Sequence record: NC_054925.1
Direction: 5' to 3' (one strand)
Source: Escherichia phage vB_EcoM_NBG2
DNA length: 64,000 bases
Shown here: piece by piece, positions 12-61,236 of the stretch
How positions within the stretch are numbered: position 1 is the stretch's first letter
Layout: every line of letters begins with the position of its first letter
The notes under the pieces: generated by a model
What the model saw: the letters and a program-made list of their open reading frames with translations, nothing else
Databases searched by the model: none
Told to the model about the DNA's origin: nothing
Position numbers and translations under genes: made by a program

Positions 12-2189
12 TTAGGCCGCAAGGGCCTTCATAGTTTTAGCGATTTGGGAAACTTCATCATCACTTAAAGAGTTGCGATAACCGATGAAGTCGGAAACAA
101 TACGGAATTTCTTGGTAAACTCAGCAACCATTTTATCACTGTTTTTTGAAGCATTATTTGATAATACATCAAAAAGATTAGTTACTGTCCAGATGTCATG
201 ACCAATGGTATCTTTTCCACCATTAAAATATACACCGCGCAATGAACTAACTATATTAGCGAGTCGTGTATATTCTTCAGAAACTTCATCTGTACTGAAG
301 TACTTCATCATAAAATCTAACTCAGGATACTTGATAATTTTATCAATATATCGTTGAGCTGAACTTGAATAACCTACGTACTTATCATAATCTACATCAT
401 CAAAAGCATCTACATATAAATCACGCAAAGCTTCAAAAATACATTGGCACTGACCGAGTTCTTTTACCTTTTTCTGTAAAAGCGGACGAATAACATAAAA
501 TTCATTAATGCCAATAAGATTAGCCATACGAATCAAAATATTCATAGATGGATGACAAAGAGATGTAGTACCATCCATAGAGAAAATATCAGAACGATGC
601 ATATACGCTACATAACCAGTAATTTCATCTGCTTCTGATGTGAGCGTAAATAATTCCTCTTTTTCCCAGCGCCCGTCTTTAATTTCAAACTTAAATGCTG
701 TAGCAGCTTTAGGACGAGGAGCTTTACTTTTAACTACCTTTGGAATATAGCTTTTAACTAAAGCTTCAATTTCTGACAAATAATGAATGTTAACTTCATC
801 GCTTTCAAACATCGCCATAATATCAGGAAGCAAATCAATCTGCGATTCTACTTCCGGATTAATAAACAGAAGACGCTCATTATGATGAATATTCAAAGTG
901 TTATTAAATTCACTATCATCTAACGCATGTGCTAATCCACGGACAATATTAACGCGATTTTTAATATTATCAATAACAATATTAATTTTTGTTGTATTAA
1001 TACCAAACAGACGATAACTTGATGCAACGGCTGAAGTTTCATGACTTTGCTTAATGTGTTTCAGTCGAGGGTCAAGATTTACTTCATACACAACTCCTGC
1101 ATTGCATAACTTACTATCAGGTTCAAACATGCTCTGCATTTTCTTATATGACAGATTTTTAGTCGTGAATTTGACTGAATTACTAATCATATAATCTCGA
1201 GCAGAATACCCCATCTTCATCAATTCACGATATGTGTGACGAGGAGATGTAGATTCTTTAAATCGTTTTACATCTTCATTAAATGCTTTCTCACTGAGTT
1301 CTTTAACTCGTTCAATAATATTTTTACGAGTACGATCATCCAGTGAAAGAGCCTCACGAGATGGAGCAATATCAAGTGAACCCATTGGAAACTTAATGTA
1401 ATTCACTTCATTGCGAATGCTTAGCCAGTTACGGTCTCTAATAACACCGTCGATAGGATAAACAATACCGCCATAGATAGCATATAATCCACCGCGATCA
1501 GGCCAGTATCTTTCTGGATTTACGCCATAATAATCATCAAAATCCGGAAAATAATCAATTTCGCGGTCAAGGCCATTAATGATAGCCAAATCTTTGAATG
1601 GTCGCATGATATAAGAAACTTCATAAGCAAAGTTTCTAAAGTCTTTTTCTTCAACTGGAACTACGATTTCAATACCAGTTTTATCATCTGGACCCATTTC
1701 TTTTACGAATGTAGGTTTAATCTGTGGGCCATCACCATCCATGTAAGCTACATAACCACGAATTTCACCTTTATGATACGAAGTAATACTAAACGTATCA
1801 GTATAACTAAACGGAGATTTAGAACCTAAACCAAATCCGCCAATGAAATCGTTAGATTCAGCCTTAGATGAACTGAAGTATGAATTATACAGACCAGGAG
1901 AATTATCATCACCCTGAATATCAAAATCACTCATACCCGGACCAAAATCTCGACAAACAAATCGTGGATCTAAACGTCCAGGAACTTGTATGATAAATTT
2001 TTCAGGATTTCCATTGAGAGCATGAGCATCAATCATGTTAGTAATTAATTCACGGACCACTGCGCGAATCTTGTTTGTATACAAATCAGATGATAGAATT
2101 TTAAATACTTTAGGATTTGCTGCGATGCTAAATGCTTTTGATTTAGAACCATTGCCAAGAATTGTTTCTTTTTCAGTGGTGATAATCAT
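12..2189 (-). CDS. rIIA: rIIA protein (membrane-associated rapid-lysis / exclusion-sensitivity protein)
   Basis: 725 aa ORF, same length as T4 rIIA as recalled; first gene of the T4-type map; SD-like sequence upstream. Confidence 0.85.
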
Positions 2190-2199
2190 AATTTCCTCA

Positions 2200-2403
2200 T
2201 TAATTCATATTACGCTTAATAACTTCAGCAACTTCTAGTAGTTCATCTTTAGTTGCGGTATCGGATTGAATTTTATCTCTAATATCCTTAAAGCGGTTTT
2301 TAAATTCTTCGGCTTCTCCCATATCGAAAAAGCGTTGAATGATTCTATATTCTCGATGAACTGCTTTATCAAAAAGTTCTAAATTTACTTTATATGATTT
2401 CAT
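2200..2403 (-). CDS. small hypothetical protein (rIIA.1 position)
   Basis: 67 aa ORF just upstream of rIIA; GAGGA SD; early promoter module immediately upstream. Confidence 0.55.
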
Positions 2404-2427
2404 TTCAATATCCTCATTTGCCCAATT

Positions 2428-2458
2428 AATTATACCACATCCTTGTGGTAAAGTAAAC
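2428..2458 (-). promoter_or_regulatory. early promoter (GTTTAC -35, 18-nt spacer, TGGTATAAT -10) for rIIA.1-rIIA
   Basis: minus strand reads GTTTACTTTACCACAAGGATGTGGTATAAT; identical 32-bp module at 46366-46397. Confidence 0.6.
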
Positions 2459-4278
2459 TACTGGCTCATCCATTCTTTACGAAGGTCAGCATTATCTCCC
2501 ATGAGCATTTCAAAAAGCTCTTTCCAATTCTCAGGAAGTTTAACAACATCATATACTGGATTTTGAATCATCTCACGATATTCAGATTTTTCCAAAGAGC
2601 CAAGTCCTTTAATATAACGGATGCTATGTTTAGGTAGAGCATCTTTAGCACTCTCATATTCAGCGACTGTAAAAAACCATTCTTGTTTTTTACCGACCTG
2701 AGCGATGATTACAGGAGTTTTGACAAAGCGAATTCTTCCTTGCTCAAACAATTCTGGCCAATTACTAAAAAACCCGAGCAGAGAAGGATAAATGCTTCCT
2801 AGACCATCATGGTCAGCATCAGTCATAATAGCAATATTATGATAATTCAAGTTTTCAGCTTTTTCACCGAGAACTAATCCAGTGATTGCGCAAATATCAA
2901 ATAGTTCTTTGTTTTTAAGCATATCAGCATATGACATACCCCAGCTATTAAGAACTTTACCGCGCAATGGATAACCACCATGAAGTTCTTTATCACGAAC
3001 ATCAATAAGATATCCGATAGCCGAATCACCCTCAGTCAAGAAAAGAGTAGTGTCAGCATCTTTACCACAAAGATTCGCTTTGATATGTTTATGAACCTTA
3101 GCTTTAGAAGCCTTTTTAGCTGCTTTAGTTTCTGCTGCTTTTTCTGCCGCCAATTTACGAGCCAAAGCAGCTTCAATAATCGGCATTAGAATTGCTTCAT
3201 TATTTAGAATAGCGCGTGAAATCTTTTTAGCATCAAGCTGAATATGACTACGAATTTCGCCAAATGGAGAAGTCAAACGCTCTTTAGTTTGAGAATCAAA
3301 TCGCATGTTTTTCATATCACGAACAAACATAACGATAGTCAAACATTCTTTAACGCGTGCTTTAGTTACATCAATTTTGAACTTGCGTTTGATTTGTGGA
3401 ATAAGGTCTTCACAAATATCATCCATAACACAGTCAATGTGATGGCCACCATTCTTAGTGTGAATGTTATTGACGTATGTTAATTGACGAAAACCATCCG
3501 GTGAACGACCAACCGCAATAGAACAATTTTCTTGTTCTTGAACGATAGCATGCTCATCATATTGGCGTGCATATTTCTTAAAATTGCCCTGAACCTTTTT
3601 ACCATTAAAGGTAAATTGAATATCAGGATAAACTACTGCAAGTGTCTGGAGACGATCTAGTGTAATGTCAAGATAAACTTGGGACAGCTCATTAGTTTCA
3701 AATGACATAAAATCAGGAATGAAAGTAACACGAGTTCCTTTCCATTTTCCAGGAATAGTTTCCCATGATTTATTTTCCATGCCATTTGAACAACGAACTA
3801 CAATATTATTTTGACCATCACCAGTTTCACCGACAAACATCACAGAAAAAATGTTTGTCAAACTAGAACCAACACCATTCATACCGCCAGTGACGCGTTC
3901 TTTATCATCACCGAAGTTACCACCTGCTTTTGGAATAGTCCATGCAGCAACAGGACCAGGAATTTCTTCACCGGTAGGTGTTTTAACCATCGCCTGCGGA
4001 ATACCACGACCGTTATCTTCAACTGTTACTTGATTGTTTTTAATAGTAACATTAATTTTATTTGCGAATTTAAACTTAGTACGAATACCTTCATCTACTG
4101 AGTTATCGATAATTTCATCAATAAGCTTAACAAGACCAGGTACATACTGAACACTTTCCCATTTACCAAACAGAAAGCGCTCATGCATTTCATTAGCAGA
4201 AGAGCCAATATACATGCCACTACGCTTTTTGATATGCTCAATATCGCTCAGAATTTTAATTTCATTCTTAATCATCAC
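2458..4278 (-). CDS. 39: DNA topoisomerase II large subunit, uninterrupted (GHKL ATPase + TOPRIM region)
   Basis: 606 aa continuous ORF; N-terminal ATPase-like region and C-terminal MTDADHDGLGS TOPRIM-like segment in one frame; start may be 4278 or 4275 (tandem ATG). Confidence 0.85.
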   Translation of the reverse strand: MMIKNEIKILSDIEHIKKRSGMYIGSSANEMHERFLFGKWESVQYVPGLVKLIDEIIDNSVDEGIRTKFKFANKINVTIKNNQVTVEDNGRGIPQAMVKTPTGEEIPGPVAAWTIPKAGGNFGDDKERVTGGMNGVGSSLTNIFSVMFVGETGDGQNNIVVRCSNGMENKSWETIPGKWKGTRVTFIPDFMSFETNELSQVYLDITLDRLQTLAVVYPDIQFTFNGKKVQGNFKKYARQYDEHAIVQEQENCSIAVGRSPDGFRQLTYVNNIHTKNGGHHIDCVMDDICEDLIPQIKRKFKIDVTKARVKECLTIVMFVRDMKNMRFDSQTKERLTSPFGEIRSHIQLDAKKISRAILNNEAILMPIIEAALARKLAAEKAAETKAAKKASKAKVHKHIKANLCGKDADTTLFLTEGDSAIGYLIDVRDKELHGGYPLRGKVLNSWGMSYADMLKNKELFDICAITGLVLGEKAENLNYHNIAIMTDADHDGLGSIYPSLLGFFSNWPELFEQGRIRFVKTPVIIAQVGKKQEWFFTVAEYESAKDALPKHSIRYIKGLGSLEKSEYREMIQNPVYDVVKLPENWKELFEMLMGDNADLRKEWMSQ

Positions 4279-4327
4279 TTATCCTCGTTTGGTTTCGGGA
4301 ATATTATACTCCGGTAATCATAAAGCT

Positions 4328-4346
4328 AAAGGCCCGAAGGCCTTTT
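4328..4346 (-). terminator. GC-stem hairpin with UUCG tetraloop in mRNA
   Basis: plus GGCC-CGAA-GGCC flanked by A/T runs, between 39.1-like gene and gene 39. Confidence 0.5.
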
Positions 4347-4614
4347 ATTTAAAACGAATAGTTGAATCCTTAAAGAACAGCCCAGAACATACTGTTCCTT
4401 CTACTTTCTGCCCGGTAGGTCCAATAGCACGAAATCCAGTATGCTGGAAATCATTTTCAGAGCAACCGAACCAGTTATATCCAGTGATTTCAATATTAGT
4501 AAACCCACTTGAAGACAAAACTTTGGTTGCATTATCAGCATCAGTACATCCTACTAAAGATACTGCTAATACTAATGCCGCGATAGAACGATTAACATAT
4601 TTCATAATTTTCAC
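4345..4614 (-). CDS. putative lipoprotein
   Basis: 89 aa; N-terminal hydrophobic segment ending LVGC (lipobox-like). Confidence 0.5.
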   Translation of the reverse strand: MKIMKYVNRSIAALVLAVSLVGCTDADNATKVLSSSGFTNIEITGYNWFGCSENDFQHTGFRAIGPTGQKVEGTVCSGLFFKDSTIRFK

Positions 4615-4982
4615 TTAAATTTAATGGCTTGAAGAAGACTAATAACTCTCAAGCGACTTCTTTCATCTTTAACTGTAAAAGAAAGAGGGTCACCAGACTT
4701 CATAGTAATAGTGCATTCAAAATCAAAATCTTCGGAAACTTCTTTGAAGAAGTCAAATTCTTCATCATAAATTAAAACTTCACTCCGAAGACTGTGAAGA
4801 ATTTTTCCGTCATTTCCAGATGCTGTACTAATCATTGTAACATTATTACCTTTCATATCTTCAACGATAAATTCGCTTGTAGATATTACAGCATTAATAG
4901 AACCATTCCTATAAATAGCAGAAAATAGATATTTCTTTTCTTCACCTTCGCGAATGCGATATTTCTTACCGATTTTAAACAT
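4611..4982 (-). CDS. hypothetical protein
   Basis: 123 aa ORF, 4-nt overlap with downstream gene. Confidence 0.5.
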   Translation of the reverse strand: MFKIGKKYRIREGEEKKYLFSAIYRNGSINAVISTSEFIVEDMKGNNVTMISTASGNDGKILHSLRSEVLIYDEEFDFFKEVSEDFDFECTITMKSGDPLSFTVKDERSRLRVISLLQAIKFK

Positions 4983-4984
4983 AA

Positions 4985-5161
4985 TTACCCTTTAAGTAAG
5001 TCGTAAAATCCGCCATTCACATGCTTAGGGGCAGAGACTAACCGAATAGCAATCCGATGACAATCAGGACATACATCAGTATCTCTTTCAGAAATTTTCT
5101 TGATTTTTTCGTATTCTTTTGCGCAGTCTTTTGATTGACATTTATAATCATAAAGCGGCAT
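4985..5161 (-). CDS. small zinc-ribbon protein (CxxC...CxxC)
   Basis: 58 aa ORF below the track threshold, read by hand; two CxxC pairs; fills gap between flanking genes. Confidence 0.4.
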   Translation of the reverse strand: MPLYDYKCQSKDCAKEYEKIKKISERDTDVCPDCHRIAIRLVSAPKHVNGGFYDLLKG

Positions 5162-5163
5162 AA

Positions 5164-5577
5164 TTATTCCTTAAAGTGAGCTTTCAACATCTGATACAAG
5201 GACCATGCCTGTTCATCATTTTCAATAGTAACTTTCATTACAGGGAATTTAGATTGATCAGTTATCGGTGCAGATTCTTCCTGCTCTTCAGCTGCCTGGT
5301 ATGGATTTTCAACTTCATTAAAGAATTCAGCTTCATTCGATGAAAGCCAAATAAAATCTTCATCCAAAATATCTTTACCAGAAGATAGTACTAAATTTCC
5401 AGCAAATGACATAATTTTAATAGGACGCCCAAGAGCATCCACATCTAAAATTTTAAAAGGATGCATACCTAAACGGCGTGCATAGATTCCGTTATCAGTA
5501 TGGTCTTTAATAAAATTTTCTTGAGCTTGTTTATTTTTAAATTGATACCATTTATTAACTTCAAATCTAATAGCCAT
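5164..5577 (-). CDS. hypothetical early protein
   Basis: 137 aa ORF in early-gene tiling. Confidence 0.5.
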
Positions 5578-15025: not shown

Positions 15026-15033
15026 TATTTATA
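15026..15033 (-). promoter_or_regulatory. late promoter TATAAATA for soc
   Basis: exact TATAAATA on minus strand about 30 nt upstream of soc start. Confidence 0.55.
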
Positions 15034-15207
15034 TCAATCTTCAATGAAAACTTGTGCCAGGAATTCATGCTCATCTTGAATTTGTTTATATAAAGCCATT
15101 ACAGCATTTATGTTAGAGCTATCTACTTTAAGTTGATAAGCATACCACTCATGTAAATTAATTAAAGCTTTTTGACGTCTAATAAATTCTTCTTTGGATA
15201 TTTTCAT
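15034..15207 (-). CDS. small hypothetical ORF (57 aa)
   Basis: hand-translated; ATGA overlap with upstream stop. Confidence 0.35.
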   Translation of the reverse strand: MKISKEEFIRRQKALINLHEWYAYQLKVDSSNINAVMALYKQIQDEHEFLAQVFIED

Positions 15208-15413
15208 TTTGAATGCTCTATAATTAATTTTAAGGCTTCTTCACTGACAAAAATTTCGTCAGGACCTTTTTCTACAACCCAATCAACCCAATCAACCATA
15301 CGAAGCTGATTAGAAAAGAGCTCACATACGAGCTCCTTGTCATAATCTTTAAATAGCTGGTCAATACGCTTCTTGCGGGCTTTCTTGAGCTGGCGTTTAT
15401 TTAAACGAGCCAT
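15204..15413 (-). CDS. hypothetical protein
   Basis: 69 aa basic ORF. Confidence 0.45.
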   Translation of the reverse strand: MARLNKRQLKKARKKRIDQLFKDYDKELVCELFSNQLRMVDWVDWVVEKGPDEIFVSEEALKLIIEHSK

Positions 15414-15931
15414 TAATATCCTCTGTCTTGACGAGCGAAGTTTTCAGCATTTTTCAGATAATAAAGTTTAAAGATTTCCTCAGCTGACATTCCAAGAGCA
15501 ATGAATTTATTCATGAAAAAGTGAAATTGATCAATCAGTTCAAATTTAATTTCAAGCTGATCTTCGGGAGATAAATCTTGAATTTTCTTGGATTGCATTT
15601 CAGAATAACGTTTCTTCCAAGGTTTCCATACGGCAGAAGCTTCTTTTTCACCATTACTCATACCACCAAGAGAAGTATATAGCTCGCGAGTTTCATCTGC
15701 GATATAATCGTCTTGGTTTCGCAACCAAGCAAGAACTTCTCCTGCAGTTTCAAGTGAATCAGGATGACGATTTGTTTCTGGTTTATCATTAGCCAAACGA
15801 ATCTGTAAAGACCGCTGCATATCAAGCATAACCTGCAATGGGTCAATATTGTGCATAATATTCTCAGCATATGCACGAGTTGCTTTATCAACACCTTCGA
15901 TCAAATGAGCACATTCATTAAAGTGAGCCAT
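15413..15931 (-). CDS. 56: dCTP pyrophosphatase (gene 56, MazG-like)
   Basis: Track ORF trimmed to M32 (AAGGA SD), giving 172 aa, close to T4 gp56 size. Confidence 0.75.
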   Translation of the reverse strand: MAHFNECAHLIEGVDKATRAYAENIMHNIDPLQVMLDMQRSLQIRLANDKPETNRHPDSLETAGEVLAWLRNQDDYIADETRELYTSLGGMSNGEKEASAVWKPWKKRYSEMQSKKIQDLSPEDQLEIKFELIDQFHFFMNKFIALGMSAEEIFKLYYLKNAENFARQDRGY

Positions 15932-15961
15932 TATTTTTCCTTTCAATTCATGGATTAATAG

Positions 15962-15990
15962 ATTAATTATACAATAAATATATAAAGCAA
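15962..15990 (-). promoter_or_regulatory. MotA-dependent middle promoter candidate for gene 56
   Basis: TTGCTTTAT box and TATAAT-like -10 on minus strand. Confidence 0.35.
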
Positions 15991-16002
15991 TAAGGAGGAC
16001 AT

Positions 16003-17396: not shown

Positions 17397-17753
17397 TTAA
17401 CCTCTATTCATAAAAGCATTAAAAATTTGGTCATCAATAGATGGTGCAGTAATATTTTCTGCATCATTTAGCAAATCATTAATTTCATCAGATAGCATAA
17501 CACATGTACCTTTATTTCCTGTAATTGTTACTGCGCAATTACGAACGTTTTCTTTATTAAATTTTAGGTTAATATTTTCGTAATGAAAATCCTTTAATGC
17601 TGAATATATTTTTAAAATAAAATTGTCTTTTACTACAATAAACCCAACCTCACTATTAAAACGTGGTTCATGGAAACTGTAATAAACCTTTTCATCTATA
17701 AAATCGTATGAAATTTTTTCCATTTTTAAATATGAAAATTCAGAACTATACAT
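17397..17753 (-). CDS. hypothetical protein
   Basis: 118 aa ORF. Confidence 0.5.
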   Translation of the reverse strand: MYSSEFSYLKMEKISYDFIDEKVYYSFHEPRFNSEVGFIVVKDNFILKIYSALKDFHYENINLKFNKENVRNCAVTITGNKGTCVMLSDEINDLLNDAENITAPSIDDQIFNAFMNRG

Positions 17754-20401: not shown

Positions 20402-21575
20402 TAAATTCTTCCATATCACTTAACTGTTCGAGGTCAGTTTCTAAATCAGCAGCTGATTTACTTTTACTTTCTGGAGATTTAAATTTTTCAACCTTTGAGT
20501 TAATCAATTCATCAACTTCAGCTTCAACAATTTCATTACTATCAATAGCACCTAACTGATAAGCACGTTTAATAGCATCTCGGAATGGTTGATGCTTAAA
20601 TAAAGGGCCCCAGAATGTAGTGCAGTTAGTATCTTTTGCACGCCAAGATTTTTCTTCGCGAATCATCTCGCCGGTTTCTTCATCAAGAAATTCACGAGCA
20701 TACCAGCCATTTTTAGGTTTTACTACAAATCCTAATTCTAGAGCCATATCTAACAATCCAGAATAAGGATCGATACCACCGTCAAATTTAACATCAATAA
20801 AGAATTTACTTTTTTCTTTAACGGTACGAGATTTTTCTACATTTAGAACAAATTGATATCCCTGAAGATCAGAACCATCTTTAATCTGACGCTTACCGAT
20901 AATGAATACAGTATCAGCTGAATACATTACGCCTGTACCACCTGTCATCACGGTTTTACTAAACATTTCAATGGTTTCAATTGTATGGTTAACCGCAACA
21001 CATGGAATATTTTTAATGCTAAAATAAGGAGTAACAATACGGAATAATGACTTCAGTGATTTAGCACGAGTCATATCTGCCACAGATTTTTCATTCAAGG
21101 CATCTTCCGTTTCTTTCTTAGAAGCCATATTACCAATTGAGTCGATGAATACAATAACCTTTTCACCACGCTCAATAGCTTCAAGCTGATTCACCATATC
21201 AATTTTCAGCTGTTCAACTGACTGGATTGGTGTATGAATTACTCGTTCCGGGTCAACTCCCATGGATCGCAAATAAGCTGGAGTAATACCAAATTCGCTA
21301 TCATAGAATAGACAAACTGCATCAGGATATTTGTTCAAATACGCTGCAACCATAGTCAAAGACATATTTGATTTAAAGTGTTTAGAAGGCCCTGCGAAAA
21401 TAGTTAAACCAGACTGCATACCGCCATCAATCGCACCAGAAATAGCAATATTAAGCATTGGGATTTTTGTACGGATTACATCCTTTTCATTAAAGAATTT
21501 AGATGTAGTCAGTTCAGCAGTCATTTTAGAAGTGGAAGCTTTAATCAAACGGGATTTTAAATCTGCAATAGACAT
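20394..21575 (-). CDS. uvsX: UvsX recombinase (RecA-like)
   Basis: 393 aa; RecA-fold P-loop region (AGPSKHFKS); acidic C-terminus. Confidence 0.9.
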   Translation of the reverse strand: MSIADLKSRLIKASTSKMTAELTTSKFFNEKDVIRTKIPMLNIAISGAIDGGMQSGLTIFAGPSKHFKSNMSLTMVAAYLNKYPDAVCLFYDSEFGITPAYLRSMGVDPERVIHTPIQSVEQLKIDMVNQLEAIERGEKVIVFIDSIGNMASKKETEDALNEKSVADMTRAKSLKSLFRIVTPYFSIKNIPCVAVNHTIETIEMFSKTVMTGGTGVMYSADTVFIIGKRQIKDGSDLQGYQFVLNVEKSRTVKEKSKFFIDVKFDGGIDPYSGLLDMALELGFVVKPKNGWYAREFLDEETGEMIREEKSWRAKDTNCTTFWGPLFKHQPFRDAIKRAYQLGAIDSNEIVEAEVDELINSKVEKFKSPESKSKSAADLETDLEQLSDMEEFNE

Positions 21576-21652
21576 TCATTTTTTCCATAGGCATCATTAT
21601 ATTTTCCTCACTGGTTAAAGATAGAGTAATTATAACACAATAAATTTAGGCA

Positions 21653-22501
21653 TTAATCAACTGCTATTGGATGAATAGCATTAAACTTATGAAATGCTTC
21701 TGATTTTTCTTTACGCGAAACACACATGCGAAGAACCTTTAATGGATCGTCTTCTTCACCCAACGATTTTCGTTTTTCAATATTCGATGTTTTCCAACGA
21801 GCTTGCTCTGGAAACTCTCTATTGATTTGCTCAAGCGCTCTATTATGTTTAGAATTACTACGAATTGAACTGCACCCGCCAGGAGCTTGTGCTTTTCCAG
21901 ATACAACCAGATATTTGAACAAGGCCAAATGCGGATAACCTTGATTAATTAAATTGAGAAATGCATACATATCTTCGCATAAATCAATTTTTCCATACCC
22001 AATTTGTTCTGTCGTAAGTTTTCCAAGGTCATACCATGTATTCGTGAATCCATATGAATTTTCACGATAATTACCCCAAGATGAAGTAATTTTAAAAATT
22101 GGTAGACGAGCATGGCCATGATAATATCCGCAATCCATGGCATCCTCAACATATTGAATCAATTCATAGAACTGTTCACGAGTTAATTGATTAATTTTAT
22201 CTACGCAGCGACGATCATCTTTCTTTCGCATTGAACTCATACGAATAGTAGTATCATCATCGATCATCCAAATTCGCTGACCTGCATACATATCAGTAAT
22301 TGCTTTACGAGTTCCAGCAATTCCATTAACATCATCAGGAATAGTTATAATTTTAGCTCTAGACCCATAAGCGTCATAATAAGCTTTTTCTTCGTGTTTA
22401 CGTACTACAATATGAGGTTCATAATCAGATGGAAACATATCAAGGGCAGAAACTGCCCCTACGCGTTGATAGCTTGGAATTACGAATTGAATCATTTCCA
22501 C
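21653..22501 (-). CDS. putative GT-A fold (GT2-like) glycosyltransferase at the beta-gt locus
   Basis: 282 aa; N-terminal FVIPSYQR and DxD-like WMIDDDT; between uvsX and gene 42. Confidence 0.55.
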   Translation of the reverse strand: MEMIQFVIPSYQRVGAVSALDMFPSDYEPHIVVRKHEEKAYYDAYGSRAKIITIPDDVNGIAGTRKAITDMYAGQRIWMIDDDTTIRMSSMRKKDDRRCVDKINQLTREQFYELIQYVEDAMDCGYYHGHARLPIFKITSSWGNYRENSYGFTNTWYDLGKLTTEQIGYGKIDLCEDMYAFLNLINQGYPHLALFKYLVVSGKAQAPGGCSSIRSNSKHNRALEQINREFPEQARWKTSNIEKRKSLGEEDDPLKVLRMCVSRKEKSEAFHKFNAIHPIAVD

Positions 22502-23232
22502 TCACCGTTATAATCTTTTTTCGCAATATGAGTTTCGCCAGTTTTCCACCAATGGTCAACCAAGTAAAAATGACGGGAATACACATGAAGACTTCCGACA
22601 TTCCATATAATGGAACCCGCTTTATACTGGCGAGTTGAATCACCTGCATTCAAATCAGATACTAATTTATCTAGTACGTATTTTTGCCACGCATAATCAT
22701 TGCGGAATCCGAAGACCACGTCATTTGAGCGCATGTTAACTACTGCATTGACTTTCTTATCACGAATCAGATACTGTACTGTATTCGTACACATGAAATC
22801 TGACATACCATCTTTATTGTAGTCAAACTGCATGGATGGACGAGTATAAATCATGATACCACGTCGAGAATCAGGATTTTGACCAAGTTCAGCTAAACAC
22901 ATATCATACTGGGCATAGTTATCTTCTGACCAGATAGCCCAGCCATAATTCGAGTTAATTTCACCTTTAGAAGATGCTACCTGTTGCCAAATCTTTGGCG
23001 TTTCGCCTGGAATATCTTTAACAAACAGACTTTGAGACTTATACCATTCAAGTTCACGTTGAATGTATTCATCATTAAGAGCACCAAAAATAAAAGGTTC
23101 ATCTGCTACAAATGATGCGCCAATAATTTCAATAGTTTTAACACCAGTTTTATCAACTACGAAATCTTTTTCCTTTAATGCAATTCCCAAATGAAGACGG
23201 GTTTCTTCAACTGTCATAGAGTCATTAATCAT
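22492..23232 (-). CDS. 42: dCMP hydroxymethylase (gene 42)
   Basis: 246 aa; thymidylate-synthase-like family; size as T4 gp42. Confidence 0.9.
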   Translation of the reverse strand: MINDSMTVEETRLHLGIALKEKDFVVDKTGVKTIEIIGASFVADEPFIFGALNDEYIQRELEWYKSQSLFVKDIPGETPKIWQQVASSKGEINSNYGWAIWSEDNYAQYDMCLAELGQNPDSRRGIMIYTRPSMQFDYNKDGMSDFMCTNTVQYLIRDKKVNAVVNMRSNDVVFGFRNDYAWQKYVLDKLVSDLNAGDSTRQYKAGSIIWNVGSLHVYSRHFYLVDHWWKTGETHIAKKDYNGEWK

Positions 23233-32441: not shown

Positions 32442-33457
32442 TGTGTTGCCTCTACATATAACTGATTTGCATATTGAATAAGTGCTTCACGGTCAGAATC
32501 AGTGATGTCTGGAATTGCATTAATGTATTCTTCCATCAATGTCTGAAGCGATTGAACTTCAACTTCTTCACTGTCATCTGACTCGACAGAGTTATCAATC
32601 TTTGACACAACTCGTAATGAATGCACAACTTTTTCTAGTTCAGATTCGAACTTCGTTAGATTTTTGTCTACTTCAGTTACTATAACACGTACTGATAGAT
32701 TTGTAAAATCTTTATAGTCAATTTTTCCTTTAAATGGATAATGAATTCTACGATGCCAGGTAGTATTGTTTGGAATAAATTCCATTCGTTCTGTTTCTGT
32801 ATCAAACATCCAGAACCCACGAGGGTCATTCTCGTCACCTGCAGTTAGTGTCCATGGTGTCCCAATATATCTGACGTTTGCAGCCTCAGAAATAGTATGG
32901 AAGTGACCAGACCACACTTCTTTATAAGTCTTAAGGAAATCGGGTTCAAGACCGTGAGATTTCATTCCTTTATAAAAATAAAATCCATTCAGTTCCCAGT
33001 GACCAACACAAAAAGAAGCAGATGAAGTTTTGATGTGTTCAAGAATTTCACCAGTGTTTTCTTCACACATCCAAGGAATCAAATCAATCAAACACCCGTC
33101 AAACTCTACTGTAGTAGGCTTATCATATACTTTAACATTAGGATATTTAGCCAAAAGCTCAGTAGAGGCATTTGGATGCATTACATTTTTATAGTGGAGA
33201 TCGTGATTTCCTACAATAGTGTGTAATGTAATTCCAGCATCATCAAGCGTTTGAACTATTTCACGGGCAAACTCCATAGTTTTATGTGTGATCGCTTTTC
33301 TCACATCAAAAATATCACCATATTGAATCCAGGTAGTAATTCCATTTTTCTTAGAATATTCTATTGCTTGTTTAATTCCATCAATTTGAATACCGCGAAT
33401 CCACTCATCATCAGCTTTAACGCCTAAATGCCAATCACCCAAGTTTAGTATTTTCAT
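32438..33457 (-). CDS. 47: recombination nuclease subunit (gene 47, Mre11/SbcD-like)
   Basis: 339 aa; phosphoesterase motifs GDWHLG, GNHD, GHWE. Confidence 0.85.
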   Translation of the reverse strand: MKILNLGDWHLGVKADDEWIRGIQIDGIKQAIEYSKKNGITTWIQYGDIFDVRKAITHKTMEFAREIVQTLDDAGITLHTIVGNHDLHYKNVMHPNASTELLAKYPNVKVYDKPTTVEFDGCLIDLIPWMCEENTGEILEHIKTSSASFCVGHWELNGFYFYKGMKSHGLEPDFLKTYKEVWSGHFHTISEAANVRYIGTPWTLTAGDENDPRGFWMFDTETERMEFIPNNTTWHRRIHYPFKGKIDYKDFTNLSVRVIVTEVDKNLTKFESELEKVVHSLRVVSKIDNSVESDDSEEVEVQSLQTLMEEYINAIPDITDSDREALIQYANQLYVEATQ

Positions 33458-34058
33458 GGTGTCTTTTCCATCCTAATTTAGCTGCTTTTGAAACTAGTTC
33501 TTTAATTTTTCCTTTTGTCCATTCAGGACCAGGAGGTTCATGACATAACATTTGCTTAACTCCGTTATTATACCATTTTTTACCTTTATTATGTGATGAA
33601 GCTTTAAATTTATTTGACCTTCCTTTTACATAACCTTCTGGAATATAAGGCAAAAAGGCAGATTTTCCTGTTAATGGATCATGTGAATGTATATTTCCTT
33701 TACAATTATGAGAACCATATAATGGATGATTTTGTCCTTTATTATCTCTTCCAAATGAACCTTTTGGAGCAGCATATGACATATTAAAGAATAATGGATT
33801 TTTAACTGCATCATGCAATCGTTGATAATATAACTCGCATTTAATAGCTTCTTCACGCGTATCAAATTTAGCTAAAATGCATGAATCAAATAAGTGAGGA
33901 TTATCTGAAAGCTCTTTATTATAAATTTTCTTATACTTTTTAGATAAAACTGAACCATGATATCCAGCTAAATGCCTATCTAAAGACGTAGATCCAATAT
34001 AAAAAGGAGGAAGTTTATCTCCACTATATATTGTTAAATAAGTTATATATTTTTTCAT
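33435..34058 (-). CDS. GIY-YIG-like protein, possible homing-endonuclease relative
   Basis: 207 aa; N-terminal YITYLTIYSG...FYIGSTS...R motif and basic K/N-rich C-terminus; overlaps gene 47 start by 23 nt. Confidence 0.4.
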   Translation of the reverse strand: MKKYITYLTIYSGDKLPPFYIGSTSLDRHLAGYHGSVLSKKYKKIYNKELSDNPHLFDSCILAKFDTREEAIKCELYYQRLHDAVKNPLFFNMSYAAPKGSFGRDNKGQNHPLYGSHNCKGNIHSHDPLTGKSAFLPYIPEGYVKGRSNKFKASSHNKGKKWYNNGVKQMLCHEPPGPEWTKGKIKELVSKAAKLGWKRHHENTKLG

Positions 34059-34236: not shown

Positions 34237-35437
34237 ATTTTGTAATAATGTCAAACTGTTCTTTAAAACAGAAGCTTGAATCTTGGTGCTGATACAAAAA
34301 TTCATATGCTTTTTCTCGCTCACGGTCATAAAGAGCTCGGTCAGATGACAGTTCTTTAATACGTTCAAACGTTGATTCCATATCATTTTCATCAAACCAA
34401 ATGATACCGCTATCATGCGAGGTCAAAGGAGTATTATCAACACGGAATTTTAAATTTTCGCCAGTAGATTTCCAAAATACCGGAATTGTTCCACATGCAC
34501 CAAGCTCGAGATGAGTATATTCTAAAGAACGTTGTAGATATTTTTTGTCCAACTTACTCAGCTGATAACCAAATCCGGATTTACTCATGCGTTCAAGCAT
34601 TTCGCTATTTACATAACGATCAAGAATTTGCGTTGGCAAATTAGGAGCAATTTTAATTTGGTCTACTTGATGAAGACGATAATACTCGTATGGAATTCCT
34701 TTTTCTTTAATAGGAATGAACGCTGGAGAACGTTCCAGACCTTCCATAATAGTACTTAGTCCTGCAGGTTTAAGATGTTTTTCATGAAAATCAAACATCT
34801 GATAAAAACCTTTCCATGTAGTCGTACGACCAATCCAACGGTTAACATTCATGTTAATTTCAGAAACATCTTTCCAGTAGGTTGACCGAACCTTCGCAAT
34901 ATCCATAGGAGGCTGAAAGTTATATACTGTCGGTGCTTCTTCAATATCATCAAACAGAGAAACAGTTTCTGGATACCATTCTTTCATCAGAACTTTATTA
35001 AAATCACCATTATCAGAATGACTAAAAATAACATCAGCTCGACGAACAGTTTCTTCTAATCCCAAATTTCGACGCAAAGAAAGAGAAGAATGGTCATGTT
35101 GATAAACTACAACACGAACAGAAGGTTTAATGTTATCAATAATTTTTTTATAGTTATTAATAGTGTCTTCTTCAACCGAAGTAGCAGGAACTGAATTGAT
35201 AATTAGAATATCACAATCATTTACCAGCTTAAGTGTTTTATCATATTCTTTTGCCAATAAAACCGGAATTGAAAATGATTTATAATCATGCGCGCAATTA
35301 CGAGTAAATGATTTATCTTTAGCATAAACCAAAGTTACTTCATGACCATTCTTAATAAACCAATCACGTTGCTCAAGAGAAAATTTAGTTACACCACAAC
35401 CTTCAAGACCTCGAGCCATAAAAATACATACTTTCAT
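34235..35437 (-). CDS. agt: DNA alpha-glucosyltransferase
   Basis: 400 aa; size and position as T4 alpha-gt; N-terminal glycine-rich GLEGCGVTKF. Confidence 0.8.
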   Translation of the reverse strand: MKVCIFMARGLEGCGVTKFSLEQRDWFIKNGHEVTLVYAKDKSFTRNCAHDYKSFSIPVLLAKEYDKTLKLVNDCDILIINSVPATSVEEDTINNYKKIIDNIKPSVRVVVYQHDHSSLSLRRNLGLEETVRRADVIFSHSDNGDFNKVLMKEWYPETVSLFDDIEEAPTVYNFQPPMDIAKVRSTYWKDVSEINMNVNRWIGRTTTWKGFYQMFDFHEKHLKPAGLSTIMEGLERSPAFIPIKEKGIPYEYYRLHQVDQIKIAPNLPTQILDRYVNSEMLERMSKSGFGYQLSKLDKKYLQRSLEYTHLELGACGTIPVFWKSTGENLKFRVDNTPLTSHDSGIIWFDENDMESTFERIKELSSDRALYDREREKAYEFLYQHQDSSFCFKEQFDIITK

Positions 35438-35464
35438 TTAATATCCTCTTTGTTTTGGTTTATT

Positions 35465-39477: not shown

Positions 39478-39948
39478 TTAATCATGTGTCCACACCCCAT
39501 CGGTATTTGACCAAAGTCGCTGATTATCTGATCCTCGCCACAGCTTTTTGGTCGGAAGATTTTTCTCATACTTCCCATCAATAATAACATCAACATATTT
39601 AAGCATTTCTAGTTGTTTAATATCTTCAAACTTATATCCTGTCCACAACCAAATGCTTTTATTCGGATAAAGATTTTTTACTGTTTGAACAATGCAATGA
39701 ACAACATCTCGGTTATCAGGATAAAGAGGGTCTCCTCCAGTTATAGTTAATCCTTCTATATAATCATTATTCAAACATTCAATTAATTGTTCTAGCGTTT
39801 CACCAGTGAATGGAACGCCATTTCTAGCATTCCATGTTGATTTATTATAACACCCTTCACATTTATGCAAACAACCTGTAACGAAAAGAACGACCCTGCA
39901 TCCAGGGCCATTCACAAAATCGCAGGGATAAAATCTATCGTAATTCAT
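39478..39948 (-). CDS. nrdG: anaerobic ribonucleotide reductase activating protein NrdG (radical SAM)
   Basis: 156 aa; CLHKCEGC cluster motif. Confidence 0.85.
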   Translation of the reverse strand: MNYDRFYPCDFVNGPGCRVVLFVTGCLHKCEGCYNKSTWNARNGVPFTGETLEQLIECLNNDYIEGLTITGGDPLYPDNRDVVHCIVQTVKNLYPNKSIWLWTGYKFEDIKQLEMLKYVDVIIDGKYEKNLPTKKLWRGSDNQRLWSNTDGVWTHD

Positions 39949-41762
39949 TGGTGTTTAACCCTATGCATGATTTCTTTATTTTTTCCAAGATTAAATCCGC
40001 GTTCATTCGGATTTCCCAAATAACCACAAGTTCTTCTTATGGTGTTCATCTTTTTAGGATCAGTTTCTCCACAAATAGAACAAACAAATCCGTTTTCAGT
40101 AGGAGTCATTTCATGGGTACTTCCGCATGTAAAACATTTATCTACTGGCATATTAACACCAAAATAATCTAAATGTTGTGCAGCATAATCCCATACAGCC
40201 TCAAGACCTTTTAGGTTATTTTTCATATCAGGAAGTTCAACATAAGAAATGTGACCACCTGTCGCAATGAAATGATACGGTGCTTCGCGAGAAATCTTTT
40301 CAAACGGAGTAATATTTTCTTCTACTGAAACGTGGAAACTGTTAGTGTACCAGCCTTTATCGGTAACATCTTTTACACTTCCATATTTTTCGGTATCAAG
40401 TTTACAGAAGCGATAGCACAGATTTTCAGCAGGAGTAGAATACAAACTAAAAGCAAAACCAGTTCTTTCAGTCCACTGCTTAAGATGAGTATTCATTTTA
40501 GTTAAAATTTCCTGTCCAATATCACGACCGACAAGAATATTCAATTCGTGAATACCAATGTATCCTAGGGATACTGAACTTCTACCGTTTTTAAATAACT
40601 CAATTATATCGTCATCAGGTTTAAGACGGACCCCGAATGCACCTTCTTGGTAAAGAATAGGAGCAACAGTAGCTTTAACTCCTTTTAAGGAACTAATTCT
40701 ACACAGCAAAGCTTCAAAACATAAATCCATTCGTTCATTGAACAATTCGGCAAATTTCTGTTCATTGAACTGTGTTCCAATATAAGAATCTAATGCAATA
40801 CGAGGAAGATTCAGTGTTACAACGCCAAGATTATTACGTCCATCAAGAATTTCACTACCAGTCGAATCTTTCCATACACCCAAGAAACTACGGCAACCCA
40901 TTGGAGAAACAGGAATAGATGAACCTGTGATAGCTTTATTGTTCTTAGCCGAAATGATGTCAGGATACATTCTTTTGCTTGCACACTCTAGAGCAAGCTG
41001 CTTAATATCATAGTTCGGGTCGTCTTTATAAAGATTAACACCTTCTTCAACGAACATAACAAGCTTAGGGAAAATAGGAGTTATCCCATCACGACCGAGA
41101 CCTTTAATACGATTTTTCAGAATTGCTTTCTGAATCATTCGTTCAGTCCAGTCAGTTCCCGTGCCAAATGTAATTGTTACAAAAGGCGTTTGTCCGTTTG
41201 AACTAAAGAGAGTATTTACTTCATATTCATAAGCTTGGAATGCATCGTATACATCTTTTTCTGTTTTAGATTGAGCATAATTTAACGCATCAGCGATTTG
41301 CCATTTTTCTGCATCCTCAATATGTTTTGCATAGGTGCGTTTAACATAAGGAGAAAGTACTTTATCTACATTAGCAAAAGTCGTTCCGCCATATTGATGG
41401 GAAGCAACTTGCGCAGTAATTTGTGCCATAATTGCAGTAGCAACGCCAATTGATTTAGGAGTTTCAATCTGCGCATTACCAAGCTTAAATCCGTTCTCAA
41501 GCATTCCTTTTAAATCTACTAAACAGCAATTAGTAAATGGAAGAGCAGGGGAATAATCAATATCATGAAAATGAATAATTCCGCTTTCATGCGCTTTCAT
41601 AATAAAAGACGGGACCATATTTTTGGCAATGTGTTTAGACACAATACCAGCCATAAGGTCCCGTTGAGTTGGAAAAACACGAGAATCTTTATTAGCATTC
41701 TCGTTTAAAAGGTCTTTATTAGTTTTATGAATCAATCCTTCAATTTCTTTTTCAATTGTCAT
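39945..41762 (-). CDS. nrdD: anaerobic ribonucleoside-triphosphate reductase NrdD, intronless
   Basis: 605 aa continuous ORF; glycyl-radical motif RRTCGYLG; C-terminal Zn ribbon. Confidence 0.9.
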   Translation of the reverse strand: MTIEKEIEGLIHKTNKDLLNENANKDSRVFPTQRDLMAGIVSKHIAKNMVPSFIMKAHESGIIHFHDIDYSPALPFTNCCLVDLKGMLENGFKLGNAQIETPKSIGVATAIMAQITAQVASHQYGGTTFANVDKVLSPYVKRTYAKHIEDAEKWQIADALNYAQSKTEKDVYDAFQAYEYEVNTLFSSNGQTPFVTITFGTGTDWTERMIQKAILKNRIKGLGRDGITPIFPKLVMFVEEGVNLYKDDPNYDIKQLALECASKRMYPDIISAKNNKAITGSSIPVSPMGCRSFLGVWKDSTGSEILDGRNNLGVVTLNLPRIALDSYIGTQFNEQKFAELFNERMDLCFEALLCRISSLKGVKATVAPILYQEGAFGVRLKPDDDIIELFKNGRSSVSLGYIGIHELNILVGRDIGQEILTKMNTHLKQWTERTGFAFSLYSTPAENLCYRFCKLDTEKYGSVKDVTDKGWYTNSFHVSVEENITPFEKISREAPYHFIATGGHISYVELPDMKNNLKGLEAVWDYAAQHLDYFGVNMPVDKCFTCGSTHEMTPTENGFVCSICGETDPKKMNTIRRTCGYLGNPNERGFNLGKNKEIMHRVKHQ

Positions 41763-50862: not shown

Positions 50863-51876
50863 TCATTTATAATAACTTCGGTGGTTTTCAAGATAAACCC
50901 TCTCAAGGAAGTCATCCCAGAAACCCATGTCTACTTTTTGCTGCATACCGTTCTTAGAAGCTTCAATGGATGCTGCTTCTACTTGATCGACCACATCTTC
51001 CAAAAACTCTTGGACAGTTTTAAATGGATGTTTACCCAACTTCACGTCGAGAATAAATGGAGCATCTTGGAGTGGATAAACCAAATCACCAGTTTTGTAA
51101 ATTTCCAATAGTTGGAGTCCACCACGGCAAGCATGACTAAGAGCTTTCCAGTCAATGCCCTCATTCGCTTCAGCCTTACGAGCACGTTCGCCGTATTCAG
51201 CATCTAATTTGTTCAGTGACTGCTTAAGCTCAATAAGAGAAAGCGTTGTCTGATATTTACGACCCAACACAGTATAGAACGTTTGCGGGCCTGTTTTCTC
51301 GTGATTATGGAACACCCATTCACAGAACTCGTTCTCTGGAAGACGATGCTTAATATCTTCAACTTTAGTGCGACGCTGCTTAATGGAACCGTCTTCTTGA
51401 TAATCAACCCACTGATCGGGGATTTGATTAACTACTTTCAATACATCACGCAATGCGGCCAAACGAGAACCCTTAACACCATATTTAGAAGCTTGCTTGC
51501 GAACATATCCTAAATAGGATTTCATGTTAGTTGTATAAAACCGTGAACGATTGTCTTGAATAAACTTCCATACATCAGGCAAATCTGATTTAACTACTAG
51601 TTCAGGTGGAGTGTGGAGCATATCCAATGCTACAGTTTCACCATCTGCTGCTAATTTAAAGAAATACTTAAGACTGTATAGTTCATGGTCAATATCATCT
51701 TTAGTGTTTTTAGATGATGTGTTGTTAGTGTTTTTACTCATATGCTCTTTAACATTTCCGATAAGAATATCGCGAGCAGGAGGAACAAAGATTTCTTTAA
51801 AATCTACATCAGATTCTGGAGTAGAAGTTCCATAAAGATGACTACCAAAATAGCTTTTCATTACTGTTTTCATCAT
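50863..51876 (-). CDS. putative nucleotidyltransferase (Pol-beta-like fold)
   Basis: 337 aa; N-terminal GSHLYGTSTPESDVDF and downstream DMLH acidic residue. Confidence 0.5.
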   Translation of the reverse strand: MMKTVMKSYFGSHLYGTSTPESDVDFKEIFVPPARDILIGNVKEHMSKNTNNTSSKNTKDDIDHELYSLKYFFKLAADGETVALDMLHTPPELVVKSDLPDVWKFIQDNRSRFYTTNMKSYLGYVRKQASKYGVKGSRLAALRDVLKVVNQIPDQWVDYQEDGSIKQRRTKVEDIKHRLPENEFCEWVFHNHEKTGPQTFYTVLGRKYQTTLSLIELKQSLNKLDAEYGERARKAEANEGIDWKALSHACRGGLQLLEIYKTGDLVYPLQDAPFILDVKLGKHPFKTVQEFLEDVVDQVEAASIEASKNGMQQKVDMGFWDDFLERVYLENHRSYYK

Positions 51877-52334
51877 TCAGCCTTATATTCAATAACAGGA
51901 CATACTTTAGCTTTACGAGCTTTTAAAAATTCGACGATAATAGATTTCTTGGGTTGAATAGGAGGTAAACCTTTATACGCCCTATCAATATTTTCTACAT
52001 GTAAAGCATAATCCTTTTTCCATTTATAATCTTTATATTTTTCATGCAGTTGTGCAGGAATAACACATGAACCGATAATAAGTAAAACAAGCAAAATAGC
52101 AAGTATAAATGCTGATGGAATAAGAGTCCATAAACTACCAAAAATAAGCCATTTCTGTATGATTTCTGCACAGATGATAGTTAGACCTGCGAGTATAGTA
52201 CATCCGAAAAAAGAAACGAAAAATGTAGGAATAACAATAGACCAAAAATACGCGCACAGTGTCTTAGGTCGTTTCCATTCATCATTAAACATTTTGAATA
52301 ATTTATAATGCCAAGAGTTTTCATTAATAATCAT
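51873..52334 (-). CDS. membrane protein
   Basis: 153 aa; 3-4 hydrophobic helices. Confidence 0.5.
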   Translation of the reverse strand: MIINENSWHYKLFKMFNDEWKRPKTLCAYFWSIVIPTFFVSFFGCTILAGLTIICAEIIQKWLIFGSLWTLIPSAFILAILLVLLIIGSCVIPAQLHEKYKDYKWKKDYALHVENIDRAYKGLPPIQPKKSIIVEFLKARKAKVCPVIEYKAE

Positions 52335-52336
52335 AA

Positions 52337-52858
52337 TTATCCTTTCATTGAAGGTGTAACAGTTGTTAAATACTTAATCATAGCTTCAGCTTCTGATTTT
52401 GATAATGAAATTTCTCCATTGTTTTGACGAATAGAAATAAAATCCGGATGACGGTCACCACCAGCTTTTAAAACACACATATAAGTATCAGTTTCATCTT
52501 CAATATTTGAAATGATTGAAGCAGTTCCACATGAATGTGGTTTTTGATAAATCAATACAGCTTTTCTTCCACCGTTTGACTGTTCATAAACTTTTAACAC
52601 ATCAAACAAATCACTTCTTTTATCAATAGCTAAGATGTTGTTTTCATCTTCAATGTTAAATCCTTCGGATACTTCATAAAGCGTTACCCATAAATCACCT
52701 ATATCGATAGTAGCATTTTCCTTTCCATGACTTTCAAGAGCATGACAAATTTTCTTGATTTCATCATAACTCATTTTAATAATATCATCTCCTTGAATAA
52801 GGAAGATGTCATTTTTAAATTCAACACGAATTAAACCGCTTCCACTTGAAATAAACAT
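52337..52858 (-). CDS. hypothetical protein, paralog of 52865-53431
   Basis: 173 aa; C-terminal SKSEAEAMIKYLTTVTPSM resembles TKDEAIALKTYLDSVIPTM of neighbour. Confidence 0.5.
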   Translation of the reverse strand: MFISSGSGLIRVEFKNDIFLIQGDDIIKMSYDEIKKICHALESHGKENATIDIGDLWVTLYEVSEGFNIEDENNILAIDKRSDLFDVLKVYEQSNGGRKAVLIYQKPHSCGTASIISNIEDETDTYMCVLKAGGDRHPDFISIRQNNGEISLSKSEAEAMIKYLTTVTPSMKG

Positions 52859-60657: not shown

Positions 60658-60762
60658 TTCTGTATTTACCCATTACCGCACTCAGGCTCGACCTTATTAC
60701 AGGTTGGCGGGAATCCCTCATAGAATCATGAGGTCCAGTTTGTTCCCATATTTCTTATTTGC

Positions 60763-61236
60763 TTATTTGAACGATTTAACGTACTGAATAGAACCTTTAC
60801 TATTTACAAAGGCAATTTTACCATTTTTATTATACATTGTAGCAGTACGTTGATAGCCATAAGTTTGTTTACCAGATTGATAACCAACTAATGCAAAATT
60901 ATCTTCACCCATTTTATTCTGTTTAGCGCGAATGCGTTCATGACCATGTGCCATAAGAACCTTAGCATCACCAGTTGCAATGGATCGACGAGTTTTTTCA
61001 TCTTCAACTGTATTAACAAAGTCGTCAAATGAATCAAATTTAGCATGAGATTTATTATACAGTTTTCCATCTACTGCATAATTATATCCCTGTACATCCA
61101 TCTCAACTTCTGTACCATCATCCAATACAGCAGTAATTTTTTGACCTTTTTTAAATTTCAAAAGATCAGTAAAAGATTCAGCGATAATTTGAGAATTAAT
61201 AGCTGCTTCAGTGATAAATTCTTGATATGTTTTCAT
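60763..61236 (-). CDS. internal protein with capsid targeting sequence
   Basis: 157 aa; N-terminal MKTYQEFITEA matches the T4 IP targeting sequence as recalled; immediately upstream of gene e. Confidence 0.65.
   Translation of the reverse strand: MKTYQEFITEAAINSQIIAESFTDLLKFKKGQKITAVLDDGTEVEMDVQGYNYAVDGKLYNKSHAKFDSFDDFVNTVEDEKTRRSIATGDAKVLMAHGHERIRAKQNKMGEDNFALVGYQSGKQTYGYQRTATMYNKNGKIAFVNSKGSIQYVKSFK

Follow-up and report, generated by a model that had tools for sequence, protein, structure and literature searches.

Gene 39 of Escherichia phage vB_EcoM_NBG2 (NC_054925.1) is carried in one piece. In the 64,000-nucleotide stretch of this genome that was analysed (the window), the unsplit gene, annotated elsewhere as '60plus39', occupies 2458..4275 on the minus strand, runs without interruption and is colinear with the genes of its unsplit relatives; the MobA homing-endonuclease element, whose boundaries in T4 are established by direct comparison, is absent from the window. 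It is very nearly certain, as judged from the sequence comparisons set out below, that this is an intact Tequatrovirus gene 39 for the GyrB-like large subunit of a type IIA topoisomerase, free of the MobA element, and the sequence offers no evidence to the contrary. Ordinary colinear translation would give one GyrB-like subunit of ~68 kDa with GHKL ATPase, transducer and complete TOPRIM regions, and pairing with gp52, whose gene lies beyond the window, would give an A2B2 type IIA topoisomerase by homology with T6, for which such an enzyme has been demonstrated by structure and enzymology (Nat Commun 2024, PMC11461880). In the proposed explanation, gene 39 of the window phage either never received the MobA element or carries it no longer, while in T4 and about 40 sequenced relatives the element has replaced 64 nt, cut the gene into genes 39 and 60 and added tails to both halves; the same element has brought in the T4-type 50-nt coding gap that ribosomes must bypass.

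The gene 39 frame and its protein

The window opens with rIIA (12-2189) and rIIA.1 (2200-2403), at coordinates equal to those of the T4 reference genome. Beyond them, the list of open reading frames holds one long minus-strand frame, 2458..4278, with 606 aa when counted from a GTG codon (4276-4278). The stretch 2458-4275 translates as 605 sense codons and a lone stop at the end, and the ATG at 4275 is almost certainly the true start, with the GTG one codon farther out. This ATG is preferred because the T2, T6 and RB14 genes are all annotated as 1,818 nt (605 aa) starting with MIKNEIK, and because a GAGGA Shine-Dalgarno sequence (4282-4286, minus strand), a putative signal read from the sequence, lies 6 nt ahead of the ATG and only 3 nt ahead of the GTG. 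We infer that the chance origin of an open frame of ~605 codons in DNA of roughly 35% G+C is impossible.

Other putative signals, likewise read from the minus strand, lie farther upstream: a TATAAT (4303-4308), a MotA-box-like TAGCTTTA (4321-4328) placed 12 nt upstream of it, and a hairpin GGCC-UUCG-GGCC (4328-4345) immediately past the stop codon of 39.1. The combination of TAGCTTTA and TATAAT, a putative T4-type middle promoter by its likeness to the MotA-box consensus, is absent from the site list of a sigma-70 scan, as is expected because a middle-type promoter has no -35 hexamer. In the region 2150-4700, the scans for sigma-70 promoters and terminators returned no more sites than in shuffled sequence.

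The domain composition of the encoded protein is that of a topoisomerase II large subunit, and the PHROG family phrog_543, named 'DNA topoisomerase II large subunit', is matched at E = 1.4e-294. Among the Pfam models, HATPase_c covers aa 47-149 (E = 1.9e-9, 38.4 bits against a cut-off of 26.4) and is accompanied by the GHKL ATPase motifs EIIDNSVDE (54), DNGRGIP (87) and GGMNGVG (130); DNA_gyraseB, the transducer or second domain of GyrB, covers aa 250-384 (E = 1.5e-13, 51.1 bits against a cut-off of 27); and TOPRIM_C covers aa 519-604 (30.3 bits against a cut-off of 29). For the Toprim model proper, Pfam gives a weak match over aa 410-492, a range that covers DADHD, with 17.5 bits and under its cut-off of 23.1, and the TOPRIM assignment therefore leans on motifs and on the near identity of the protein to T6 gp39, whose structure is solved. 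These motifs are EGDSA (aa 415-419; 3019..3033, minus strand) and the acidic cluster DADHD (aa 486-490; 2806..2820, minus strand), so placed that the EGDSA glutamate and the DxDxD cluster of a complete TOPRIM fold stand on one chain. An earlier reading made from the sequence alone (the sequence-only reading) had put the ATPase and TOPRIM-containing regions in a single 606-aa frame, naming no strand. The single frame is borne out by HATPase_c, DNA_gyraseB, TOPRIM_C, EGDSA and DADHD, all on one polypeptide; the length of 606 aa describes the mechanical frame from the GTG, but the likely protein has 605 residues, and the gene lies on the minus strand.

The domain order, GHKL ATPase followed by transducer and TOPRIM, is common to cellular GyrB and ParE and to the N-terminal half of eukaryotic topoisomerase II. 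In sequence these cellular enzymes are distant from the window protein, with PDB matches to human topoisomerase II alpha and beta and to ParE and GyrB at E = 1e-59 to 1e-36. By analogy with its relatives we infer the enzymatic function of the window gp39. The phage enzyme relaxes DNA without supercoiling it and has neither a GyrA-box nor a C-terminal beta-pinwheel domain (Nat Commun 2024, PMC11461880).

Unsplit relatives and the boundaries of the T4 element

In the records of T2 and T6, the location of window gene 39 is likewise occupied by one gene of 1,818 nt, and the RB14 record labels its unsplit gene '60plus39'. The window protein is colinear with gp39 of T2, T6 and RB14 over 605/605 residues, without interruption, and differs from them by 3, 2 and 2 residues, respectively, at a nucleotide identity of 96.7-98.3%. 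Length, start, stop and the place between rIIA.1 and 39.1 are the same in all of these phages, and what distinguishes their genes from that of the window is scattered substitutions only, mostly synonymous. In a PDB search, the solved T6 gp39 chain 8ylu_C is matched over residues 1-605 with 1386 bits, while the window protein aligns with an engineered T4 gp39-gp60 fusion as two stretches, the first of which stops at residue 473.

The T4 reference annotation has gene 39 (3778-5328), a remnant of mobA, 60.1 and gene 60. The last of these is joined from two pieces, and a 50-nt 'non-coding translational bypass region' is marked in it (2803-2852); translation places the gap precisely between ...MTDADHDG and LGSIYPS... 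in the gene 60 product. The boundaries between T4 and the window were taken from blastn and from ungapped comparisons anchored at either end, global alignment with MAFFT having misplaced the 1.1-kb insertion. In this comparison, nt 1-1418 of the window gene (aa 1-473; 2858..4275, minus strand) are homologous to the body of T4 gene 39 with an ungapped identity of 96.5%, and the homology stops cleanly after GGTGAAAAAGC, the left edge of the MobA element. At the other end, beyond the element, nt 1483-1818 (2458..2793, minus strand) are homologous to the last 336 nt of T4 gene 60, with 329/336 nt identical (97.9%). Between them lies a 64-nt segment, gene nt 1419-1482 (2794..2857, minus strand), which encodes E474 to S494, includes the equivalent of the region with the reported MobA nick and homing site, and gives way to the MobA element in T4-type phages.

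These 64 nt of window gene 39 are exchanged in T4 for 1,117 nt, and in T4T, in which mobA is intact, for 1,106 nt. The T4 insert holds, in order, a new gp39 tail of 44 residues, mobA, the new N-terminus of gp60, HomR, the 50-nt gap and 9 diverged nt. HomR is a diverged copy of the coding sequence that was replaced, with 31/43 nt as in the window, and when HomR and its flanks are compared with the 64-nt segment, the 50-nt gap taken out, 39/64 positions match. T4 therefore differs from the window at two points, the split between genes 39 and 60 (window 2857/2858, A473|E474) and the bypass (2802/2803, G491|L492); as the sequences align, one mobile element accounts for both, and at neither is the window interrupted. 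The boundaries and lengths measured here agree with the published figures for the MobA element, which give it a length of 1097-1106 nt and a '64 nt deleted region', place the insertion at Topo2L nt 1399-1419 and, for clade 1, put the 3' end just past D490/G491 plus 9 nt (Manning and Atkins 2022). Since EGDSA is encoded by gene 39 and DADHD by gene 60 of T4, the metal site of the TOPRIM fold is there divided over two polypeptides, which is not so in the window phage; that the insertion splits a metal-binding site has been described before (Manning and Atkins 2022).

T4 and the window phage have the same enzyme, flanking DNA that is 96.5% and 97.9% identical, and the neighbours rIIA, rIIA.1 and 39.1 in common. 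The window is without the 1,106-1,117-nt element and its mobA, without the tails that extend gp39 at its C-terminus (FEEKEDGEW...RKNL) and gp60 at its N-terminus (MKFVKIDSS...), and without the GGA-UAG take-off, 50-nt gap and landing GGA of T4.

At the bypass point itself, the window reads straight through. The sequence GATGGTCTAGGAAGC occurs once in the window (2794-2808, minus strand; shuffled sequence expectation 0) and is read in frame as GAT GGT CTA GGA AGC, that is, D490 G491 L492 G493 S494, with no stop and no gap, in the protein context ...IMTDADHDGLGSIYP... (also given as ...NIAIMTDADHDGLGSIYPSLL...). The codons GGT CTA of G491 and L492 (2800..2805, minus strand) are continuous here, at the point where GGA-UAG stands in T4 gene 60 together with the 50-nt gap and its landing GGA. 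The sequence-only reading had claimed that no 50-nt gap or in-frame stop interrupts GATGGTCTAGGAAGC, and had described T4 as split into genes 39 and 60 with a bypass element. The former agrees with this single uninterrupted occurrence and the latter with the T4 record, and in the alignment with T4 genes 39 and 60 and with T2 and T6 gene 39 it is T4 that is not continuous, at the two places given above.

Absence of the cassette and frequency of the unsplit form

Searches for the cassette and for its bypass signals agree with an empty site. With the intact HNH homing endonuclease MobA of T4T (272 aa) as the tblastn query, the best match in the whole 64-kb window reached only E = 0.88, and with the T4 cassette DNA as the blastn query the window gave only the HomR-like stretch of its own gene 39 (46 nt, 76% identity). 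The Topo2L reading frame is one ORF rather than a split pair with element-encoded C- and N-terminal extensions, and the T4 tails are missing from it. The junction (GAT GGT CTA GGA AGC) has no GGA take-off codon with a stop behind it, no coding gap of ~50 nt and no matched landing GGA, nor is there the nascent-peptide signal of T4 gp60, KYKLQNNVRRSIKSSS, in whose place the window has ...GLVLGEKAENLNYHNIAIMTDADHDG.

Synteny with T4 1-72,000 and tblastn found in the window none of the homing-endonuclease genes that T4 has in this region, namely mobA, segF, segA, mobB, mobC, mobD and I-TevII with the nrdD intron, and no homologue of dam or denV was found by the same means in the 64 kb; the window is also free of group I introns, other Rfam families and tRNAs. 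A Seg-like endonuclease candidate lies at 33435-34058, the corresponding site of T4 being empty, and a beta-glucosyl-HMC alpha-glucosyltransferase of the T2/T6 type lies at 21653-22501, where T4 has segA and beta-gt.

Megablast of 2200-4700 against the phage collection matched 675 phage records, nearly all of them Tequatrovirus from Escherichia, Shigella and Yersinia, with no record identical over the gene 39 region; the closest is 98.8% identical over 2.5 kb, and the first 25 kb are matched at ~97% identity by the best records. A first figure of 506 of these 675 records is not a clean count of unsplit genes, as pieces may be joined across 1.1 kb, and the records were therefore recounted with a 164-nt junction probe (window 2744-2907, at least 80% covered in a single place). 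By this measure, 453 phage records hold the uninterrupted junction, and the T4 cassette is found in 43 records of the phage collection. The unsplit form is the majority form, present in about 91% of close relatives, and is no peculiarity of T2 and T6; it is presumably the parental state. The T2/T6-like arrangement assigned to this phage by the sequence-only reading is apt as far as the single 1,818-nt genes and the 2-3 residue differences go, but as a label it understates how common the form is (453 against 43 records).

Since ORF calling alone cannot reveal a bypass, it may be asked whether the continuity is an artefact of assembly or annotation, the true phage having the cassette or being recoded at some other point of gene 39. 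Nothing was found in support of this, and we give it practically no credence: the frame is open throughout, its product lines up at every residue with gp39 of three phages that were sequenced independently and with a solved structure, 453 independent records show the same uninterrupted junction, and the take-off GGA-UAG, the 50-nt gap and the T4 gp60 signal KYKLQNNVRRSIKSSS are all missing.

A second alternative accepts the continuous gene and makes its state secondary, in that an ancestor would have lost the MobA element cleanly, for instance by recombination with an unsplit phage during co-infection, leaving a revertant allele. In other clades the element is reported to have been lost progressively, and 'hit and run' cases are described there as well (Manning and Atkins 2022); T-even genomes are mosaic, and across 25 kb even the best match to the window has only ~97% identity. 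The traces that such a loss might leave are missing, however, for there is neither a CTE nor an NTE tail nor any HomR-type polymorphism (the 64 nt equal those of T2, and T4 HomR matches at 31/43), and the identity to T4 is ordinary on either side (96.5% and 97.9%), with no obvious co-conversion tract. A clean replacement would look like the parental state, and the same gene results either way. On this evidence a secondary origin is very improbable, and an intact gene 39 without the element remains by far the preferred reading of the locus.

Predicted sensitivity to MobA homing, and significance

The 64-nt segment also bears on how this phage would behave towards the element. MobA is reported to nick the unsplit gene 39 of T2 inside the region equivalent to HomR, recombinational repair then copying in the entire element, and the 50-nt insert, ~20 nt downstream of the nick site, is reported to shield cassette-bearing DNA from being cut again (Bonocora et al. 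2011, as cited by Manning and Atkins 2022); T2 is the recipient in the reported homing of MobA (Manning and Atkins 2022). Gene nt 1408-1502 of the window, all 64 replaced nt included, are identical to T2, and the window thus has the T2-like sequence round the nick site and no 50-nt insert about 20 nt downstream, as in a naive target. Because the 64-nt segment and its immediate flanks are identical to T2, the window phage is predicted to be a sensitive recipient of MobA homing in a mixed infection. There is only a slight chance that the element was instead lost cleanly and secondarily, or that some feature outside the T2-identical 64 nt confers resistance to MobA; if true, either would inform the gain and loss of bypass cassettes in natural T-even populations.

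The difference between T4 and T2/T6, the bypass and the MobA cassette are already published, and nothing in them is new here; they were described by Huang et al. (1988) and Bonocora et al. (2011), both as cited in the later literature, and in Edgell et al. 2010 (PMC2988022), Manning and Atkins 2022, and the structure paper (Nat Commun 2024, PMC11461880). For annotation, the value of the result is that one topoisomerase II large subunit of 605 aa should be called, with no recoding, and it has little importance beyond that. The contrast with T4 is a textbook case of translational bypassing and of a homing endonuclease that splits an essential gene, in which unsplit alleles such as that of the window are the known parental and recipient state. 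In practical terms, with a target segment identical to that of T2, this phage could be a natural recipient for MobA homing crosses.

Homing endonuclease genes

The window lacks all seven T4 homing endonuclease genes of this stretch, namely mobA, segF, segA, mobB, mobC and mobD, as well as I-TevII along with its group I intron in nrdD, as shown by breaks in synteny with T4, tblastn searches giving no match at E <= 1e-3, and an Rfam search returning no intron. By synteny with T4, the corresponding sites lie, in order of position, at 2794-2857, 15033-15413, 21563-22510, 35428-35453, 39928-39948, 41224-41227 and 51877-52840. The position of T4 mobD is occupied by two ORFs, one for a membrane protein (51873-52334) and one y05I-like (52337-52858).

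Conversely, a segment of about 600 nt between gene 47 and a-gt in the window has no counterpart at this site in T4. It carries a 207-aa ORF on the minus strand (33435-34058) that matches the PHROG homing-endonuclease families phrog_10820 (E = 2e-94) and phrog_314 (E = 4e-17), and weakly the Pfam GIY-YIG domain, at 20.6 bits, below the cut-off of 22.6. The ORF probably encodes a free-standing homing endonuclease of the Seg type, and its locus is empty in T4.

The gene 56 (dCTPase; 15413-15971, minus strand) adjoins the empty segF site and shares only 74% nucleotide and 70% amino acid identity with that of T4, compared with 92-98% for the neighbouring genes. Gene 56 diverges between T-even phages that bear segF and those that lack it, and the low identity observed here is consistent with this known segF-linked divergence. 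On the other side, the homology blocks of gene 56 and gene 61 are separated by about 20 nt in the window (15971-15992), whereas in T4 they are about 900 nt apart, including dam; a tblastn search of the whole 64 kb gave no match to a Dam homologue.

Gene 39 surroundings and the T4 reference record

Upstream of gene 39, on the minus strand (4303-4345), a GGCC-UUCG-GGCC hairpin directly follows the 39.1 stop codon, and after it comes a MotA-box-like TAGCTTTA located 12 nt upstream of a TATAAT. Judged from the sequence itself, these signals look like a T4-type middle promoter; a sigma-70 scan did not list the candidate. Between 39.1 and 39.2, a 123-aa ORF (4611-4982, minus strand) has no counterpart in T4 and is annotated in RB14 as RB32ORF005c; it matches phrog_622, of unknown function, and its similarity to the goF family is weak.

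In gp39 itself, residues 326-328 are LIR in the T4 reference record NC_000866 (3654-5328) but FDS in both T4T and the window, and at residue 355 the reference record also departs from both. The mobA region of NC_000866 is 11 nt longer than that of T4T, and these extra nucleotides break mobA into a pseudogene and 60.1, whereas a 1,010-nt form with intact mobA is found in most of the other records bearing the mobA cassette. The gp39 differences and the longer mobA region are probably peculiarities of the reference record.

Internal-protein, possible anti-defence and glucosyltransferase genes

Where T4 has denV, ipII and ipIII (about 1.4 kb), the window has, at 60751-61236, a single 157-aa ORF (60763-61236), which matches Pfam DUF7412 as well as phrog_3155, an 'internal virion protein' family; the internal-protein region is known to be hypervariable. 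The 64-kb window has no DenV homologue, which recalls the classical difference in UV sensitivity between T2 and T4. The site that holds gene 61.2 in T4 has a shorter ORF of 118 aa (17397-17753, minus strand) with a PHROG of its own, phrog_4122. Its match to Pfam AdfA ('Anti-DarT factor A'; E = 9e-8) is confined to the C-terminal half of the family, positions 113-211 of 211; the ORF may represent a variant anti-defence gene.

In place of T4 segA and beta-gt, a 282-aa ORF (21653-22501, minus strand) matches the PHROG 'beta-glucosyl-HMC-alpha-glucosyltransferase' (E = 1e-88) and Pfam TAGT, and no beta-gt homologue was found in the 64-kb window. Taken together, these matches and the missing beta-gt suggest that hydroxymethylcytosine glucosylation in this phage would be of the T2/T6 type rather than the T4 type.
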